This document shows, piece by piece, positions 20,881 to 55,350 of a stretch of DNA of 64,000 bases. Positions within the stretch are counted from its first letter, which is position 1, and each line of letters starts with the position of its first letter. The notes below the pieces were generated by a model that did not search any database, was not told the DNA's origin, and worked only from the letters and a program-made list of their open reading frames with translations. A program made the position numbers and the translations under genes. This DNA is from Mobula hypostoma (lineage: Eukaryota). Where the stretch lies: positions 12,276,001 through 12,340,000 of the forward strand of contig NC_086097.1 of the NCBI RefSeq assembly GCF_963921235.1. The letters are read 5' to 3'.

Positions 20881-21976
20881 TGGCCATAGCTCTGGGTCTG
20901 GGATGGTCATAGCTCTGGGTCTGGGATGGCCATAGCTCTGGGTCTGGGATGGCCGTAGTTCTGGGTCTGTGATGGTCGTAGCTCTGGGTCTGGGATGGTC
21001 ACTGCGCTGGGTTTGAGATGGTCATAGCTCTGGGTCTGGGCTGGTTAAAGCTCTGGGTCTGGGCTGGCCGTAGTTCTGGGTCTGTGATGGCCGTAGCTCT
21101 GGGTCTGGTATGTCCATAGCTCTGGGTCTGGGATGGCTGTACCTCTGGGTTTGAGATGGTCATAGCTCTGGGTCTGGGATGGCCGTAGCTCTGGGTCTGG
21201 GATGGCCATAGCTCTGGGTCTGGGATGGCCGTAGTTCTGGGTCTGTGATGGCCGTAGCTCTGGGTCTGGGATGGCCATAGCTCTGGGTCTGGGATGGCCG
21301 TAGCTCTGGGTCTGGGATGGCCGTAGCTCTGGGTCTGGGATGGCCGTAGTTCTGGGTCTGGGATGGCCGTAACTCTGGGTCTGGGATGGCTGTAGGTCTG
21401 GGTCTGGATGGTCATAGCTCTGGGTCTGGGATGGCCATAGCTCTGGGTCTGGTATGGCCATAGCTCTGGGTCTGGGATGGCCGTAGTTCTGGGTCTGGGA
21501 TGGCCGTAGTTCTGGGTTTGGGATGGTCATAGCTCTGGGTCTGGGATGATCATAGCTCTGGGTCTGGGATGGCCGTAGCTCTGGGTCTGGGATGGTCGTA
21601 GCTCTGGGTCTGGGATGGCTGCAGCTCTGGGTCTGGGATGGCTGTAGCTCTGGGTCTGGGATGGCCGTAGCTCTGGGTCTGGGATGATCATAGCTCTGGG
21701 TCCGGGATGGCCATAGTTCTGGGTCTGGTATGGCCATAGCTCTGGGTCTGGGATGGTCATAGCTCTGGGTCTGGAATGGCCATAGTTCTGGGTCTGGGAT
21801 GGCTGTAGCTCTGGGTCTGGGATGGCTGTAGCTCTGGGTCTGGGATGGTCATAGCTCTGGGTCCGGGATGGCCATAGTTCTGGGTCTGGTATGGCCATAG
21901 CTCTGGGTCTGGGATGGCCATAGTTCTGGGTCTGGGATGGCCATAGTTCTGGGTCTGGGATGGCCGTAGCTCTGGG
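20881..21976. repeat. 23-bp minisatellite, about 47 copies (tggcc[a/g]tagctctgggtctggga)
   Basis: Direct reading; the 23-aa periodicity of the overlapping ORFs agrees. Confidence 0.95.
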
Positions 21977-22279
21977 ACTGTGAGTGTGAGAGCTCACTGG
22001 GGAAGTCACAGGTCCAATTTATTTGAGTCCACTGGAGGCTGGAGGCCTGTCCTGGACTATTTGTGTGTTTGATGGTGTGTGGGAGGGTGTGTTTGAGGTT
22101 TTGTTTGAGGGTGTGTGGGAGGATAGGAGGGAGGTAAGGAGTTTGTTTTTGTTGTTGCTGTCATTCTGTTGTTTACTAGTGTTGTTCTGCAAACATGTTC
22201 AGCATGTGGAACGTGTGGGCTGCCCCCAACAGACTCTTTGGTGGTGTTGGTTGTTAACGCGAATTCCGCATTTCACTCT

Positions 22280-36020: not shown

Positions 36021-37729
36021 ATCACCATGTACTACCTTGAGATTCATCTTCTTGCCATTTTTTACAGGAAAATAAAGAAATAAAGTAGAATTTATGAAAA
36101 ACCATACTTAAAGACTGACAAACAACCAAGGAATAATAGTCCTTCCCCTCCGCCATCAGATTTCTGAATGGACAAGGAACGCATACACAATATCTCACTA
36201 ATTTTTGTCCTCTCTTTGCAATACTTACTTAATTGAATATTTTATATATAATTCTTATTGTAACTTAGTTTTATTATTATATATTGCATTGTACTGCTAC
36301 TGCAAAACAACAAATTTCACAGCCAGTCGTATAAAACCTTATTCTGATTCTGGTCAATATTAACCATAAGATCATAAGACATAGGAGAGATTTTAGGCAA
36401 TTCGGCCTATTGATTCTGCTCTACTATTCTATTATGGCTGATTTACTTTCCGTCTCAACCTCATTCTCCTGCCTTCTCCCCATAACCTAATCATGAACTC
36501 ATGAAGTTCCACGTCAAATATACCCAATGACTTGGCCTCCATAGCTGTCTGTGGCAATGAATTCCCCAGATTCACCACCCTCTGGATGAAGAAATTCTTC
36601 CTTATCTCTGTTCAAAAGGGGGACTTTTAGAAGTACTATTGGGTTGGATAATGGAATTTTACCAATTTCTACCATTTGGAAATGTCAGCTCTTTTTTTTT
36701 CTCAAGCACTGAGGAGGTAGGGAAGAAAAAAAATCTCCTAGAAAAAAATCTATAAATATTACAGTGCTGTGAGAAACTCACATTATTGTTTATTAATTCC
36801 CAGGGCTGTGCATTAAATATCATTGACGTTCTCACTTAGACTCCAAATGACAGCCAGCAAATTGCCACCTATTAAGAATAAGTGTTCAACTAGTACACTG
36901 AGAAAAAAAAAATCTGTCGATTTAATATTTTGTGTTTCCCTGGGGGATGGGGAGAAAGATGGTGAAGAATCCGTAGTTATGTGTTAATGCAGTGAACATT
37001 GTGAGAAGGTAAAGGTCGATGAAAGAAGCTTAGGCAAACAAGGAGGGATAATAACAGGGAATAGGAGCAGGAGATGCCACATAGTCCCTTGAGCCTGGTC
37101 CGACAGTCAGTAAAATCAGAACTGGCATGATCTTTAGTTTCAACTCCATCTTCCTCTTTAGTTTCCATAACCCTTGTTCCTCAGATCCAAAAAAAAATCT
37201 ATGTTTCAGCCCTGAATATATTTAATGACTGAGGTACCACTGTTCTCCGAGGCAGAAAAGTCCAAAGATTCACTCTGAAAGGTGAATTGTTTAAGGGGAA
37301 TATGAGGGCGAGTTCTTCATTCAGATTGTGGTGAGAGTGTGGAACGAGCTGCCAGCAGAAGTGGTGGATATGGGGGCAATTTCAAAATTTAAGAGAAACT
37401 TGGATAGGTACATGGATGGGAGGATATAGAGGGCTTTAGTCCAGGTGCAGGTGAATGGGACTCGGCAGATTGATAGTTCAGCATGGACTAATTGGGCCGA
37501 AGGGCCTATTTCTGTTCCAAGACTCTAAACGTTAGTCTGTCTCATTCTAAACAGGCAACTCCTTACCCTGAAACTAATCTCCCCTAGTTCTAGTTACCCC
37601 AGTGAGAAGATTCATCCTCAATGTATCAAGCCTATCAGACATACAATCCTCATTTCGATGTTGAGAATATAGTCCCATTCACAGGTTTACACAATGCATG
37701 CTCAATCAATTTCCTCATCTTGTCTGCAT

Positions 37730-47420: not shown

Positions 47421-49440
47421 AAGGAAAAATGTGGCATCAACTTCTATATTAATAACCTTTCCCGGCTATGAGTTCTAAACCCAACCAGTCGAAGATATCC
47501 CTCCACTTGCCTCTGATGTTTCAACCAATTGTATTGAATCCATGTTCCTTAGCTATTGTCCTCTCTGACAAAAAAAAATATTCATCCTTTATGAGTCCTG
47601 ATGAAGGGTTTCAGCCTGAAAAGTCAACTGTTTATTGCACTCCATAGATTCTGCCTGTACTGCTGAGTTCCTCCAGCAATTTGTATGTGTTACTCATCCT
47701 TCCATTTGTTTTTAATGGTTATCATTCATTCCAAAGAAAACAATTTCAACCTAAACACTCACCTCATAGCTATAATCAGCTAGACTTTGCAGCATCTTCA
47801 TAAATCTCTGCACCCTATAATGTGGAGATCAGAACTTGGCAAGATACCCGAGCTGTGGCCTTGGCATGTATTTGATTGAAGAGTCTGCAGTGTGTTGCCA
47901 GTCAATCTCAAGCCCTTGGAGTATCCTAATGGTAATGAAAGTGAAAAGAGCTGCACAGAACAGTGAGGTATTTACAGGAGTAAGAACTCTTAAGCCACCA
48001 TTCTCACGTCAATGTTTATTCAAAGGCAACTCAAAAACATTTCCTCAAGGCCTCTTTTAGAGCATCTGAAATTCCACAGTCTAAGGCATCAAGAAAGAAA
48101 GGGCTGCAAAGTACCTTTCCTCACTTGGAACTTAATTGCTGCTCCTTCATCTTCTTGCAAAATGTCGTGAATGTCTGGCATTCTCTGCCCCAGAGAATGG
48201 TGGAGGCTCACTCCTTAAAACATTTAAGGGAGGTAGATGCATTTTTGAAAGATTGGGGTAATGAAGATAAGTGGAACAGGTAAAGGACTGTAGAAGAAGG
48301 AATCTAATAGGAGAGGTCCTTGGAAGAAAGGCAAGGAGGAGGGGACTCAGAGGGAGCTGATAGTCAGGTGAGTAGAAGCATTGAGAGGCCATAGCGGGGA
48401 ATTGCCAGGCAAAGAGGAGGAGGATTAGATTAGCCGTGATCATATTGATTGGTGGGGCAGGTTTAAGCCTATCTCCTATTTCTAATTTTTCTTTGTGTTG
48501 CTGTGCGTTCTTGTTATTATCACTGATCAAATTCCAGAATTCATTGTTTAAAAGCACTTTGAGAGTCGCCAAGAGGCTGCTGTGGAGTACAGTTTACCAA
48601 GAGCTCTTCAATTTCAATTTGAGATGGACAATAAGACCTGCCCTTACCTGTGTCACCTGTATTCCACAAATAAACAAGTAATCATCAGTAGTACAAGACC
48701 GTCCAATCTCTCCTTAATTGTTGAAGAGCATATCAATATATCAGACACTTGTTAAATTATGAGGGAATTATTCAGTGAATCTGCAAGATTCTTCTTGCAT
48801 ATGTTATTAATATCTCAATATATAATTTGGCAGGGCAAATGTTAATAACTTTATATAAATGTTTTGACTTTCAAGCTCCATTTAATGTTGGATAAGGGAA
48901 GTAGTCTTGTATTATTTCGCTTAGTAGAATAATATAGATGAACATTAGCATATGCACTCATTTGGTAAATCTATGAGATTGTTTTGATAATGCTACTGCC
49001 TTAGTAGAAATATATTAGATATTGAATAGCATTGACTTAGATTTTGAGAAAGGGTTTGACATAGTTGCACATTAAAAGATAATGACTCCATTAAATATCG
49101 ACCATTATCAGATTAATTAACATATATCTGAACTAAACTTCTTCCAGAATCCATTGATAGAGTATGGTGACTGACATGCTCAAGTCCATGATATTCCCAA
49201 GTGAAAGTTTTTACTCAACAGAGCATCAGCTGTACGAAACCTCGACCGTTCCTATAGTCTCCTCACCGAGTCCAAAATGTAGTCCAAATAGTCATAGTTT
49301 TTCTAGCTTTTATGCTGGAGATTCTGTCTGCTGCACCCATTCTATGTTAACCAGACTAATGAGAAAAATTGGCTGCTGGGAAAAAGGTAACAGGGTTTTT
49401 TAGCTAGCCTACTTTTTTGTGGTTATTAAGTATGGATATA

Positions 49441-49507
49441 CAATACTGTGCAAAAGTCTTAGGCACATATATTTAGCTGGAGTGCCTAAGAATTTTGCAC
49501 AGTTCTG
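49441..49507. mobile_element. Tiny Tc1/mariner-like hairpin MITE
   Basis: TA, then caatactgtgcaaaagtcttaggcac ... gtgcctaagaattttgcacagttctg (26-bp imperfect TIRs). Confidence 0.7.
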
Positions 49508-49845
49508 TGTTATCAATATGGAGTGGAGAGCGAGTTGTACATCTGGCAGGTGCAAAGGATGTTGGGAATGGCGAGGCTGGAACACTGTGAGAGGGTTGTG
49601 GGTCAGGTGGCAGAGAAGGAGTGAGGGAGGGGTGGGGGATGGCATGGGTGCAGACACACCCAGCACTGAGACACCAGGCAAGGTTGTTGTTCATTACAGG
49701 ATGTCCCTCTGGTGCTTCCTACTCTCTTCCCACTCCATTTCCCTTTTCCCAACCATTATTCCATTGTCCTTGTTCCCTTCCCACTCTTAGTCCACAATAC
49801 AGACCCATATCAGAATCGGGTTTATCATCACTTGCATATGTCATG

Positions 49846-50723
49846 TGTTACGTACCCCGTAACTGGGTTGCCAAACCAGCAGAAATGGATCACTCAGTTG
49901 GAGTCTGGAGTACTAGAACTAAGAAAGTTTTATTAAAGAAACAAGCAACACAGTAATCGAAAGGATAATAAATGCAACCGTTCAGTGATGATAAACACAC
50001 ATGTGCACAGAATTAAGATAACAGCATCAATCAAGCTCTATCGTTGTCTAGGGGTAAATGACCAATTTCAAAATGACTCAAAGTTCAGTCCAGTTTAGTA
50101 GTTCAGTTCGCAGTAATCGTTGCCATGGCGATGGACAAGGTGGGGAAGAGAGACATAGAATAGGAACAACTCATCATTCAGCACAGCTTCACTCACAGAC
50201 CAGCGGGATGGCTCACAGACCAGCGAGATGGCTCACAAACAGCTTTTGGGCAGGTCCTTGGTGATGTCACCTGAGGCCACCGACTGTGACCCCTCCTCCA
50301 GATGCGGTCGATCCTCTGCAGTGAACCCGGCACCCAGGCAAGGGCGGACACACACCGGGTTCCCGCTGATCGTACCTTTCCACCCTGGGCGTTGTCCGGT
50401 ACTTCTCACCACTCGTGAGAGGCGCACCGCTTCCAGGGTCTCGTTACCTCGGGTGGCGTGTGTGTCTGTCTTAGCGAACCTGTCCCTTTTTATCCCCCTG
50501 CTGGGGTATCGCCTGTCCATCACTTCAAACAGTTCAGGGCTCAAAGGGGGGAGCCGCTCCAGACAGCTCTTCCTCCCACATCCCTTCATTACACATCTCC
50601 AGACGCTGCTCCATTGTTCCTTATCTCTCCTTCCCCTGAGGGCAGGTGGCAGACCAACTGCTGATGCCACTGATGCTAGCCCAGGCCAGCAAACATCTTA
50701 ATTTTATGTGTATTCTCGTAACA
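49846..50723 (-). repeat. 3' LTR
   Basis: Direct repeat of 53934-54811 (offset 4088); one mismatch seen (50451 G vs 54539 A, a CpG site). Confidence 0.97.
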
Positions 50724-50735
50724 CTTCCCCCCTTT
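50724..50735 (-). other. Polypurine tract (AAAGGGGGGAAG)
   Basis: Purine run immediately 5' of the 3' LTR on the minus strand. Confidence 0.9.
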
Positions 50736-50895
50736 AAGGATTTTTACCGGGAGGTAAAAATTACAAACATGACTACATTATCTGATACATACACAATATA
50801 CATCTTTAACAGTTATTTAGCTAATACAGAGAATTTGAAATTGTCAACACCTTGACAGACAGTCATCACATTTTCTGTTCCTTTTACACGTGTTA

Positions 50896-53835
50896 TTAAT
50901 AATCCCTTAGACCAGGCTCCAACTCAGCAAACTTCATAGTGGCCAAAAACACTGATGAATTGCGACCAATGTAACCTCTCATTTGGTTTTGTCCCGGACC
51001 ACAACAACAAGGGTCGTCCCATTCCGACTCAATTTTCCCTCGCAAGGGCTTAGTAGGAGGGGGACGGGTATTGACCGCAGAGTTATTGCAAAACTTCCTG
51101 CAGTACCCCACCATCTCCAAAAGCCTTCTGAGGGCCCTCTTGTCTGTCGGGGTTGGGAGGTCAGCGATAGCCTGCACTGTAGCTTGCATCACTGCCAGCT
51201 GCCCCTGTGTCACCACAATTCCCAGGTAAGTGACATTCGCGTGGCCGAATTCATTTTTTCCAAGGTTCACTATCAAGCTGGCTTCAGACAGCCGTGTTAA
51301 ATTGCCAATACACACCTCTGTGTTCATCAGCCCTTTAGTCACTGAATTACTCAAAAAATATGGGTGTTGTTTACTTGGCCGCCCTATTGTAACCGACATA
51401 ACCCAACGTCCCAGTTCTTTGCATTTCCTCGGGACAATCAAACACATGGGTGCGAGTCGTTTAATTACTCCTTCGGGGATTAAGGGAGAGACCTTATCAG
51501 TAGACCTGGCCAAAACAATAGCCTTCTCCCATCTGACCGATCCCATCCTAATCTTTTCAAAGTGGTTTTTTCCTCTTATCAAGGGGCCCCTAGCTTCATT
51601 GATTTCCACGCTAACACCGACTAGGTTTGTTAGCATATCAAAAGCCGGTGACCGTCTCAGTTCGCGTCGGTCATGATCAATAACATTCTTCCCCCTGGGC
51701 AGCCGGTAAATCTCTTTCATGATTCCACCAACTGTTTCCCCCAGCACCGCAAAATGTCCACCGGGGGGTACCTCGTGGGCCATGTTAAAAACCTCATCCC
51801 CGTAACTCTTTTGCACCACCCCCCACTCCTCATCTGCGGATGCTGTACTTGATTTCCCTTTCTTCCTTAGCACTTCCTCATCCGCACAATAGCCTACTAG
51901 TTCCCTTGTCAAGGCTGTGTCAGAGAGAGCTGTCTCGGCCAAAACCATCAGCCCCTCGTCTCGCTCTTGCGTCTGCACAAATTCTTTCCTGGCTACTGCT
52001 ACGTCCGTCCCAGCTCCCTCACTACCTCTTATCTCACTACACCCTGTCTCATACAAGGTTGGCAGAAATGTTTCAGCCAAATTCACCATCGCGGGCGGGG
52101 CCTCCATGCTGGCAGGCTGACCCGTCAATCTCACGACTGGGAACACGATTCCTCTGGCGATGTCATTACCGAGCAAGACTTCCACGTCTTTCATCGGTAA
52201 TTCGGACCTCACCCCGATCGTGACTAGTCCAGAGACCAGGTTGCTCTGTAAATGTATCTGGTGCAAAGGGACTGACTCTGTCCCTTCCCCAACACCTTTG
52301 ACCTCTACCTCCCCAATCTGGGTCTCTGAGCTAAACTCTAATACACTCTTCAGTATTAGTGACTGACACGCTCCCGTGTCTCTCCAGATCCGCACTGGAA
52401 CTGGTTTTAACCTCTCCTTCACTGACACCAGTCCGGCCGAGATAAACCTCTCGCGCCCTTCCTGGACTTTTTCAGACCTGTCCTTCCCTAGCGGTTCGCT
52501 TAACAGCTCAATACAGCCATTCAAAATTTCCGCTTTTCCTTTCCCCGTCTCCTTCCTTGGGGCAAAGCACCTGGACGCAAAGTGTCCGACTTTCCCACAA
52601 TTATAACAGACGACCCCAGGAGACTTCCTACCAGACTGCTCCCGGTCTACCTTATCCTTTTCACTAGTCCCCGGCTTACTTTCTGACTTTTCCGGCGGAC
52701 TCTCCCCGCCGTCCTGACTACCCTTCTGGTAGCCTTTACTCGGGGCAACCTTCATTTTATGCGTCAACGCATACTCATCCGCTAACTTAGCAGTTGCGGC
52801 TAACGTGGCTGCCTCTTTCTCATCGAGGTAGGGTCTCATACCCTCAGGGACACAACCTTTAAACTGCTCAATCAGAACCAGTTGCAGCAGTCTGTCATAA
52901 TCCCCCTCTACCCCTTTCGAGGCGCACCAACGCTCACAATATGTTTGCATCTCGCGAGCAAACTCCAAATACGTGCGGTCCCACCGCTTCCTCGCATTCC
53001 GGAACCTCTGCCGGTATGCCTCCGGGACCAACTCATAAGTCCTGAGGATGGCCTCCTTCACCACCTCATACTTCTGGGCATCTTCCGGGGATAAAGCGGA
53101 GTAAGCTTGTTGGGCTTTCCCTTTCAGTACACTCTGAAGTAAAACAACCCACTTATCCCTCGGCCAGTCCTGACTTATAGCTACTTTTTCGAAGTGGAGA
53201 AAGTACCGATCCACATCGGTATCGTCAAATGGGGGAACCAGCCTAACCTCCTGGGTCGCCCGGAACCCTCCACCTTGGTTCGGCACGAGCCCCTGCTCGG
53301 CCCTTATCTTTAACTTCTCCAGCTCAAATTCCCTTTCCCTCTGTTTCTCCTCTCTCTCCAACTGTCTGTCCCTCTCTCTCTCTTCTCTCTCCAACTGTCT
53401 TTCTCTCTCTTGCCTTTCTACCTCTTTCTCTCTCTCCCGCCTTTCTAACTCTCTCTCTTTCTCCTGCCTTTCTAACTCTCTCTCTTTCTCCTGCCTTTCT
53501 AACTCTCTCTCTTTCTCCTGCCTTTCTAACTCTCTCTCTTTCTCCTGCCTTTCTAACTGCCGTACCCGGAACTCGTGCTCGAGTCTCAGTTTTTCAAGCT
53601 GTACCTGTACCGCGTCTCCAGCAGGTTTTTCAATAGACACCTCCCCCAGCTCACCTTGGGGAAACACACCTTTAGATACATAGTGCTCTACAATAGCTCT
53701 GTGTATCTCCTCTCTCCTCATTGTCGACTTCACCTTAGCAAGATTCACCCGTTTTGCCACAGCTATCAATTCCGATTTCCTGGCATCCTCTAATGCCTCC
53801 AAGGTCGGCGCCTTTATAAATTCCTCAACCTCCAT
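50896..53835 (-). CDS. Gag-protease polyprotein with fused degenerate integrase and RT remnants (979 aa)
   Basis: Coiled coil (LERQEKERE)n; capsid/SCAN-like region (LVPEAYRQRFR...LVLIEQF); CYNCGKVGHFASRC knuckle at 52567-52608; RDTGA protease at 52369-52380; IN remnant AHEVPPGGH; RT remnants CIGNL, VTYLG and MVGYCRKF. Confidence 0.9.
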   Translation of the reverse strand: MEVEEFIKAPTLEALEDARKSELIAVAKRVNLAKVKSTMRREEIHRAIVEHYVSKGVFPQGELGEVSIEKPAGDAVQVQLEKLRLEHEFRVRQLERQEKERELERQEKERELERQEKERELERQEKERELERREREKEVERQERERQLEREERERDRQLEREEKQREREFELEKLKIRAEQGLVPNQGGGFRATQEVRLVPPFDDTDVDRYFLHFEKVAISQDWPRDKWVVLLQSVLKGKAQQAYSALSPEDAQKYEVVKEAILRTYELVPEAYRQRFRNARKRWDRTYLEFAREMQTYCERWCASKGVEGDYDRLLQLVLIEQFKGCVPEGMRPYLDEKEAATLAATAKLADEYALTHKMKVAPSKGYQKGSQDGGESPPEKSESKPGTSEKDKVDREQSGRKSPGVVCYNCGKVGHFASRCFAPRKETGKGKAEILNGCIELLSEPLGKDRSEKVQEGRERFISAGLVSVKERLKPVPVRIWRDTGACQSLILKSVLEFSSETQIGEVEVKGVGEGTESVPLHQIHLQSNLVSGLVTIGVRSELPMKDVEVLLGNDIARGIVFPVVRLTGQPASMEAPPAMVNLAETFLPTLYETGCSEIRGSEGAGTDVAVARKEFVQTQERDEGLMVLAETALSDTALTRELVGYCADEEVLRKKGKSSTASADEEWGVVQKSYGDEVFNMAHEVPPGGHFAVLGETVGGIMKEIYRLPRGKNVIDHDRRELRRSPAFDMLTNLVGVSVEINEARGPLIRGKNHFEKIRMGSVRWEKAIVLARSTDKVSPLIPEGVIKRLAPMCLIVPRKCKELGRWVMSVTIGRPSKQHPYFLSNSVTKGLMNTEVCIGNLTRLSEASLIVNLGKNEFGHANVTYLGIVVTQGQLAVMQATVQAIADLPTPTDKRALRRLLEMVGYCRKFCNNSAVNTRPPPTKPLRGKIESEWDDPCCCGPGQNQMRGYIGRNSSVFLATMKFAELEPGLRDY
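53441..53548. repeat. 27-bp coding tandem repeat x4 (LERQEKERE) in gag
   Basis: Four exact copies of ctttctaactctctctctttctcctgc, with degenerate copies down to about 53330. Confidence 0.9.
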
Positions 53836-53911
53836 TTCTGCTGTTTGTCTTTTCTTTCTTTCGGGAATTTTAACCCAATCAATTTACTCCGTCCCAAATT
53901 TAGCGTTCAAA

Positions 53912-53929
53912 ATCCCGGACGAGCCCCCA
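53912..53929 (-). promoter_or_regulatory. Primer binding site, tRNA-Pro
   Basis: TGGGGGCTCGTCCGGGAT, the canonical 18-nt Pro PBS, 4 nt downstream of the 5' LTR. Confidence 0.93.
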
Positions 53930-53933
53930 CTTA

Positions 53934-54811
53934 TGTTACGTACCCCGTAACTGGGTTGCCAAACCAGCAGAAATGGATCACTCAGTTGGAGTCTGGAGTA
54001 CTAGAACTAAGAAAGTTTTATTAAAGAAACAAGCAACACAGTAATCGAAAGGATAATAAATGCAACCGTTCAGTGATGATAAACACACATGTGCACAGAA
54101 TTAAGATAACAGCATCAATCAAGCTCTATCGTTGTCTAGGGGTAAATGACCAATTTCAAAATGACTCAAAGTTCAGTCCAGTTTAGTAGTTCAGTTCGCA
54201 GTAATCGTTGCCATGGCGATGGACAAGGTGGGGAAGAGAGACATAGAATAGGAACAACTCATCATTCAGCACAGCTTCACTCACAGACCAGCGGGATGGC
54301 TCACAGACCAGCGAGATGGCTCACAAACAGCTTTTGGGCAGGTCCTTGGTGATGTCACCTGAGGCCACCGACTGTGACCCCTCCTCCAGATGCGGTCGAT
54401 CCTCTGCAGTGAACCCGGCACCCAGGCAAGGGCGGACACACACCGGGTTCCCGCTGATCGTACCTTTCCACCCTGGGCGTTGTCCGGTACTTCTCACCAC
54501 TCGTGAGAGGCGCACCGCTTCCAGGGTCTCGTTACCTCAGGTGGCGTGTGTGTCTGTCTTAGCGAACCTGTCCCTTTTTATCCCCCTGCTGGGGTATCGC
54601 CTGTCCATCACTTCAAACAGTTCAGGGCTCAAAGGGGGGAGCCGCTCCAGACAGCTCTTCCTCCCACATCCCTTCATTACACATCTCCAGACGCTGCTCC
54701 ATTGTTCCTTATCTCTCCTTCCCCTGAGGGCAGGTGGCAGACCAACTGCTGATGCCACTGATGCTAGCCCAGGCCAGCAAACATCTTAATTTTATGTGTA
54801 TTCTCGTAACA
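53934..54811 (-). repeat. 5' LTR
   Basis: See 3' LTR; minus strand has a GATAAAAAG TATA-like box and a downstream AATAAA. Confidence 0.97.
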
Positions 54812-54866
54812 CATGAAATTTAGGTTTTTTTGCAGCAGCTGTACAGTGCAATATATAAAATTACGA

Positions 54867-54919
54867 CAGTACTATGTAAAAGTCCTAGGCATCCTAGCTG
54901 AGACTTCTGCACAGTACTG
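54867..54919. mobile_element. Second tiny Tc1-like hairpin MITE (partly deleted)
   Basis: cagtactatgtaaaagtcctaggca...agacttctgcacagtactg followed by TA. Confidence 0.65.
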
Positions 54920-55350
54920 TATTTTTTTGACATTTTAACTTATAGCTTTTTAATTTTTTAACTTTATTTTGAACAGATCTTGAGAGATTTTGAATGTCAA
55001 ATGCACTCACAAAGTCATAAAGCACTACAACACAGAAGCAGACCGTTTGATCTATGCCCATCTTGTTTCTCCCAGTCCCTTCTACCCACACCTAGAATAT
55101 TGCCCTCCAACCCCCTCTCATCAATGTACCCACTGAAACTTCTCTTAAATGTTGTAATTAAACCAGAATCTGCCAGCTTCTCATGAATGTTCATTTTAAT
55201 AACAGCTTTGCCGTAAGTGGTGTGCATGGGGGTGAAGCCTCGCTGGCAGTCAAAATCATCCTGGCGGTGCAGTCGGACACTTACATTGAGCGGGTGCTCG
55301 ATATGCCCAGTGCCACGCCTAGGCACAGGGTATCAGCCTCCAAGTGAAGA

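Follow-up and report, generated by a model that had tools for sequence, protein, structure and literature searches.

A young LTR element inside a host repeat

The window, the whole 64,000-nucleotide stretch of Mobula hypostoma DNA analyzed here, carries a minus-strand LTR element of 4,966 bp at 49846-54811. Its 5′ LTR (53934..54811) and 3′ LTR (49846..50723), each 878 bp long and on the minus strand, have the ends TGTTAC...GTAACA and differ by one mismatch (50451 G / 54539 A), and the target-site duplication CATG is found at 49842..49845 on the left and at 54812..54815 on the right. The primer-binding site (53912..53929, minus strand) is of the tRNA-Pro type and begins 4 nt inward of the 5′ LTR junction, while a polypurine tract of 12 nt (50724..50735, minus strand) adjoins the 3′ LTR. 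Paired LTRs with TG...CA ends, target duplication, primer-binding site and polypurine tract together identify an LTR retrotransposon, and sequence inspection bore out the first-pass annotation, which had described one LTR difference and perfect duplication, primer-binding site and polypurine tract. The 20 bases at the primer-binding site are those of the MLV PBS-Pro probe given in the excerpted text of PMC4587795. A tRNA gene search found none within the window. The sole AATAAA in the LTR (49929..49934, minus strand; offset 790 of 878) is a candidate poly(A) signal, and its position implies a predicted 3′ UTR of about 1 kb.

The LTR divergence is 0.11% (95% range 0.003-0.63%), and the unique flank differs by 1.7% (8/461) from a contig of a related species, which places the insertion at about 1/15, and at most about 1/3, of the age of the species split. 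The earlier description of the insertion as very recent agrees with the low LTR divergence, but only as a relative age scaled against the flank. In a DNA run, the LTR depth was about four times the internal depth, which suggests many solo LTRs or other families sharing the LTR.

The element sits within a high-copy host repeat of 515 bp with 25-bp inverted ends (left, 49438..49462; right, 54898..54922), which we take to be Tc1-like. In 263 contigs, uninterrupted copies of the host repeat run on with AAATTT-like sequence at 49845, and the flank contigs in two runs end inside the host repeat at about 49460. The host site (49438-49845 plus 54816-54922) has terminal inverted repeats, TA flanks and an internal hairpin, and an end related to this repeat also occurs at 36277-36317. 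Rfam searches of the flank gave hairpin matches at chance level only, and a 79-aa flank ORF had no match in the ESM Atlas. Elsewhere in the window, a tandem array (20999-22018) is open over long repetitive stretches in every phase of its minus strand.

Gag and protease in the single ORF

The element has a single ORF of 979 aa (P0001; 50896..53835, minus strand), consisting of Gag and protease followed by a deleted pol remnant; the remaining two minus-strand frames contain 80 and 67 stops. Near the N terminus lies an E/R/K/Q-rich helical repeat of 27-bp units (53308..53565, minus strand), whose length differs among the sister copies; its copy number varies widely among these loci, and the frame is kept. 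The capsid (aa 191-362; 52750..53265, minus strand) contains a Pfam SCAN match at aa 271-360 (52756-53025) with an E value of 1e-12, and it is followed by a CCHC zinc knuckle (aa 409-423; 52567..52611, minus strand) matching Pfam zf-CCHC. The aspartic protease (aa 461-575; 52111..52455, minus strand) carries its DTG at aa 486-488, with an RVP match (E 0.13) below the cut-off.

Built on an alignment of 61 sequences, the AlphaFold model predicts the N-terminal helices, the capsid and the protease with confidence. A Foldseek search with the whole model gave no match at E<=0.001, and its best rows were retropepsin-type proteases with E values of about 1e-3 to 1e-2. The SCAN-type capsid, the zinc knuckle and the retropepsin-fold protease look intact.

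A shortened pol remnant in the same frame

The tail of about 400 aa is a mosaic in the order PR-IN-RT-RNase H. Its first block comprises the PR-IN linker and an integrase zinc-finger remnant (aa 585-724; 51664..52083, minus strand), in which both His are kept and both Cys are lost; it shares 39-56% identity with the region before and in the integrase zinc finger of integrase-bearing relatives. The second block (aa 725-829; 51349..51663, minus strand), with the C-terminal end of the integrase, the IN-RT linker and the RT start (KQHPY), is recognizable mainly via the Mobula birostris protein P0150. Because aa 725-745 and 780-828, aligned directly with full-length references, did not score above shuffles, the origin of these two stretches rests on P0150. 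The RT palm/thumb remnant (aa 830-943; 51007..51348, minus strand) is 53% identical to a full-length sawfish RT and reads CIGN at the YxDD position. The last block (aa 944-979; 50899..51006, minus strand) is a short RNase H remnant followed by a terminal frameshift. Within it, aa 946-968 scored above all 300 shuffles for one of three references, and 2/300 and 13/300 were obtained for the other two. The frameshift near aa 968 closes the ORF about 12 codons on and puts the last ~30 ancestral residues out of frame, and all other retained blocks lie in the ORF frame.

We used as the deletion reference the full-length sawfish protein P0146, which contains SCAN, Integrase_H2C2, rve, RVT_1 and RNase H in this order. 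Three spans of P0146 are missing from the element: ~770-1059, with the zinc-finger cysteines and the integrase core; 1176-1304, with the RT fingers and the first catalytic motif; and 1436-1525, with the connection and most of the RNase H. The deletion junctions coincide with short shared motifs (RR and RM in the protein). These spans account for the earlier statement that the ORF lacks the integrase core and most of RT and RNase H, and the in-frame PR-IN-RT order reported with it was confirmed, as PR-IN-RT-RH, both on P0146 and on a profile of 33 full-length relatives. For RNase H, this description is refined by the short remnant at aa 946-968. Likewise, the "short recognizable pieces" of the pol genes are real remnants, but the identities given above for aa 585-724 and 830-943 make the tail more recognizable than this wording implied.

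On P0001, Pfam found only SCAN and zf-CCHC, with no match to the tail even at E<=1, so neither a complete integrase nor a complete RT was detected. AlphaFold gave moderate confidence for aa 612-685 and 866-916 and pLDDT <50 for aa 686-843 and 917-979, and in the ESM Atlas the tail fell to RT/RNase H clusters at 0.79-0.81, below the reliability line of that resource. Because the integrase core, half of the RT and most of the RNase H are deleted, the element, as read from its sequence, cannot be autonomous.

Many sister copies share the deletions

The sister set comprised 18 M. hypostoma and 5 M. birostris proteins, all of them predicted proteins, which favors open frames. The closest named proteins are from M. 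hypostoma, most with 91-98% identity, the collection searched has no exact match to P0001, and all six matches of a search with the tail (7,998 candidates scored) are M. hypostoma loci with 70-98% identity. A search of longer proteins (2,986 candidates) gave one match, an oyster protein at 39%, and a metagenome scan returned 51 pattern matches but no relative. One DNA run placed 49,557 contigs on 4.3 kb, and its summed depth was >160,000 inside the element versus 7 on the unique flank; neither figure is a copy number. In run X7, RNA by our guess, element contigs with 0-2 differences had a depth >2,000, and none fell on the unique flank; we give this no weight as a sign of expression.

The integrase junction is spanned in 13 of the 18 M. 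hypostoma loci and the RT junction in 11 of them; eight reach the same stop, three of which begin inside Gag or PR. P0150 shares both the integrase and the RT junction; over 406 columns its identity is 52%, it is open for 408 aa, and it still scores Integrase_H2C2 and a partial RVT_1, while P0151, also from M. birostris, still extends into the integrase core. The deleted structure is therefore not unique to this locus, being common to many M. hypostoma loci and to P0150. P0150 also represents an older, more divergent state with the same junctions, in agreement with the first-pass proposal that the damage predates the insertion. The tree forms a ladder from P0151/P0152 through P0150, P0022, P0005 and P0004 to 13 young copies, with long inner branches (22 rows, two of them under half filled; two end branches are inflated by frameshifted residues). 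We are thus confident that this is a propagating non-autonomous lineage.

Among the 18 M. hypostoma sister proteins, nine breaks lie in the tail and one in Gag. Seven of the nine tail breaks are at differing places, as expected for decay after insertion. One frameshift, which lies near aa 875 and some 100 codons ahead of the usual stop, is common to P0004 and P0005; the two come from different contigs, and both lack the thumb. For random stops in sister tails, named beforehand as a finding that would speak against the first-pass interpretation, the outcome is mixed: half of the proteins break in the tail, mostly at scattered places, but two share one frameshift. Indel markers among P0001, P0002, P0003, P0004 and P0010 occur in all four combinations, which suggests frequent recombination among the copies.

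Three sister ORFs carry RefSeq gene names: the models MACC1 (P0002), PPM1Lb (P0019) and UBE2G2 isoform X1 (P0014) are the ORF of the ray element. They would be either LTR-driven chimeric transcripts or annotation artifacts.

The tail evolved fast, with its frame kept open

We counted changes on the lineage of P0001 versus that of P0151 at sites conserved with an outgroup. With P0146 as the outgroup, the ratios were 3:4 for the capsid end, 7:9 for the protease and 29:4 for the integrase remnant (p 1e-5); with the nearer outgroup P0023, they were 3:4, 17:9 and 41:6, respectively. The tail evolved far faster than the capsid or protease on the lineage of the element. Measured against P0152 with outgroup P0023, the protease gave 15:2, and it may be somewhat relaxed on this lineage.

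Among the 30 ORF variants found in the 40 of 512 rows listed, the tail had 15 nonsynonymous and 7 synonymous changes and no stop, versus a neutral expectation of 68/29/3%, so that its variant spectrum appears close to neutral. Gag-PR had 3 nonsynonymous and 5 synonymous changes among the variants listed, and the synonymous contrast between the tail (7:15) and Gag-PR (5:3) among these variants was not significant (p 0.21).

The tail of P0001 has no stop before its final 12 codons. In simulations with uniform rates and no CpG effect, random change to 25-30% amino-acid divergence left a stop-free tail in 18-87 of 3,000 runs, and change to 42% divergence did so in 1-5 of 3,000. By a by-eye alignment count, the path to P0001 includes 14 net in-frame indels, 10 of which are unambiguous, and the chance of 10 in-frame indels at one in three is (1/3)^10 = 1.7e-5. 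Both ORF indels or joints listed preserve the frame (12 nt; 54 nt net), versus one of nine LTR indels; the listing covers 12 of the 68 rows for indels and 15 of the 405 for joints. Altogether about 600 codons are gone by deletion, and the sole fixed frameshift lies within the last 12 codons.

The first-pass annotation had taken some 400 stop-free residues as a sign of selection. The in-frame indels and the simulations support this view, but the nine broken tails among the 18 sister proteins and the one shared frameshift weaken it, and the locus had been picked for its open frame. On balance, selection on the open frame is probable.

A parallel in stingrays

Nine ray proteins (P0024, P0026, P0027, P0028, P0030, P0031, P0033, P0037 and P0155) consist of Gag-PR followed by a decayed Gag/PR duplicate and have no pol. 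In this stingray-type set, known as proteins only, eight members belong to Hypanus and Hemitrygon and the ninth comes from an unnamed contig; one member starts within PR. For eight of the nine, the duplicate has 26-42% identity to the Gag or PR copy of the same element. Similarity among the tails is 47-90%, and four of them finish at one shared point, about 370 aa along. In a quick tree that included eight of these proteins, they clustered with a stingray protein that bears an integrase and were separate from the Mobula clade.

As a tentative generalization, which we hold to be possible but not probable, enzyme-less Gmr1-type elements of rays might be under selection to retain, in frame behind Gag-protease, any filler that can be translated. 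The proposed filler would be decayed pol in Mobula and a decayed Gag duplicate in stingrays. If this is true, the selected trait would be translation to near the 3′ end of the RNA, not the protein, and it would explain the in-frame capture of host mRNAs by such elements.

How the lineage may propagate

We lean toward an account, rated slightly more likely than not, in which a young Gmr1-derived Gag-PR lineage borrows its enzymes and keeps its frame open against nonsense-mediated decay. The LTR would drive one genome-length RNA, to be translated as Gag-PR-junk with the protease trimming the junk. The element Gag would co-assemble with a helper Gag-Pol and package the RNA. Helper RT would then copy it from tRNA-Pro and the polypurine tract, and helper IN would insert it with a 4-bp duplication; the element carries the signals for both steps, and a helper source of the enzymes is presumed. 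In-frame deletions and substitutions of the tail spread freely and early stops are not fixed, a pattern for which loss of early-stop RNAs would be the cause. RT and IN are likely supplied in trans by a co-expressed autonomous relative, as logic requires. No RT/IN helper occurred among the 120 of 1,594 and the 150 of 2,133 protein matches listed, an absence that is weakened by repeat masking in genome annotation.

Given selection on the open frame, we favor the stop position, not the length or sequence of the tail, as its target. Our reasons are that about 600 codons have been deleted, whereas just one frameshift became fixed, at the extreme end of the ORF, and that a new stop increases the distance to the poly(A), which a deletion does not alter. 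Nonsense-mediated decay would be a reasonable cause of such selection, one we are slightly inclined to accept: long 3′ UTRs after gag are described as targets of this decay in retroviruses in the excerpted text of PMC5580461. Two points weaken the decay account. Even with the usual stop, the predicted 3′ UTR would measure about 1 kb, and termination after the protease would extend it to about 2.2 kb only; moreover, a stop about 100 codons early, that of P0004 and P0005, did propagate.

A different advantage of the long frame, in the same lineage, is conceivable but rather unlikely: the long fusion protein might work in cis, like that of the mouse IAP 1-delta-1, either because ongoing translation tethers nascent Gag to its RNA or because the fusion protein itself favors packaging of that RNA. 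The predicted 3′ UTR is long anyway, and Gmr1-type relatives such as P0146 produce one Gag-Pol polyprotein; the IAP 1-delta-1 fusion protein is itself reported to be cis-acting (excerpts of PMC6466679 and PMC7411935). However, a tether should tolerate a stop as well as a deletion of equal length, and stops arise more often, yet the lineage shrank by deletion.

It is somewhat less likely still that the tail of this lineage is open by accident, through neutral drift and recombination between copies together with the choice of locus. The near-neutral variant spectrum fits such an accident, as do the broken tails of half of the M. hypostoma sister proteins with their shared frameshift, and substitutions alone give p values of only 0.006-0.03 at 25-30% divergence. 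An accident would nevertheless have to yield at least 10 net in-frame indels along one path, and it would have to recur in the older relative P0150, likewise open over 408 aa, and in the unrelated open tail of the separate stingray lineage.

We consider it improbable that the remnant domains still function as protein, e.g., by binding helper integrase or RT or by spacing the particle. The RT thumb region does retain 53% identity to a full-length RT, and AlphaFold is moderately confident for aa 612-685 and 866-916, but these folded parts borrow confidence from intact aligned relatives, and aa 686-843 and 917-979 stay below a pLDDT of 50. Both zinc-finger Cys are lost, conserved sites changed at 29:4, and the thumb is missing from P0004 and P0005.

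That the element is a domesticated host gene, or a lone autonomous copy that decayed where it had inserted, is extremely improbable despite the host gene names of some sister ORFs, as the LTRs are near-identical, the duplication is perfect and the junctions are common to many loci in two species. The junctions common to unlinked loci refute both forms of this reading, and a domesticated gag, i.e., a single orthologous locus without LTRs, does not fit an element with LTRs at many loci.

Comparison with known systems

Gmr1-like LTR retrotransposons, relatives of Ty3/mdg4, have a SCAN-type capsid followed by PR, IN and RT-RH, as described in the excerpted text of bioRxiv 10.1101/2025.03.03.638093. 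The closest full-length relatives of the ray element (e.g., sawfish P0146) share this layout in one ORF, whereas the ray element lacks the integrase core, half of the RT and most of the RNase H. The SCAN match (E 1e-12) and the PR-IN-RT-RH order both agree with the Gmr1-like ancestry first proposed for it, and on these sequence features we assign the ray element to the Gmr1 type.

Non-autonomous LTR elements often outnumber their helpers, e.g., cattle ERVK (excerpt of PMC10924933). The ray family offers a graded natural series from an integrase-bearing relative to young deleted copies, which lets selection on the act of translation be told from selection on the protein through shared and private breaks. 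If our account is true, a general rule would emerge as to which defective elements spread, and gene capture in frame would have a reason. The family also serves as a warning that long open frames in such elements, annotated as RefSeq genes, need not encode working domains. Among the papers listed in our literature searches, none describes this ray family or a pol remnant that is long eroded and yet kept in frame. Gag-protease-only families of wheat (excerpt of PMC9744471) and in-frame deleted fusions of mouse were already known.

Among the latter, mouse IAP 1-delta-1 resembles the ray element in that an internal deletion created one fused gag-pol ORF in a non-autonomous element, a successful one that reportedly relies, in cis, on being translated itself (excerpts of PMC6466679 and PMC7411935). 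IAP 1-delta-1, however, belongs to the endogenous retroviruses, has a single deletion of 1.9 kb that takes out part of gag, and needs Gag in trans, according to the same excerpts, whereas Gag and PR of the ray element look whole and its tail is eroded by many deletions and ~40-50% amino-acid change.

Template switching at short shared sequences replaces internal ORFs in LTR-mediated retrocopies, whose products can be non-autonomous (excerpt of PMC5131818). The junctions of the ray element likewise lie at short shared motifs (RR and RM), but, unlike those retrocopies, it captures no host sequence.

The semi-autonomous Gypsy families RLG_Sabrina_SA and RLG_WHAM of wheat are high in copy number, encode Gag or Gag-protease without RT/IN and are thought to rely on an autonomous partner (excerpt of PMC9744471). 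Plant TR-GAG elements are likewise described as high-copy LTR families without RT and IN. The ray element shares with the Sabrina_SA type an intact Gag-protease frame without RT/IN in many copies. The wheat families are plant lineages, and the excerpted text of PMC9744471 describes no in-frame pol remnant in Sabrina_SA or WHAM and reports many frameshifts and stops in the non-autonomous Angela elements of wheat.
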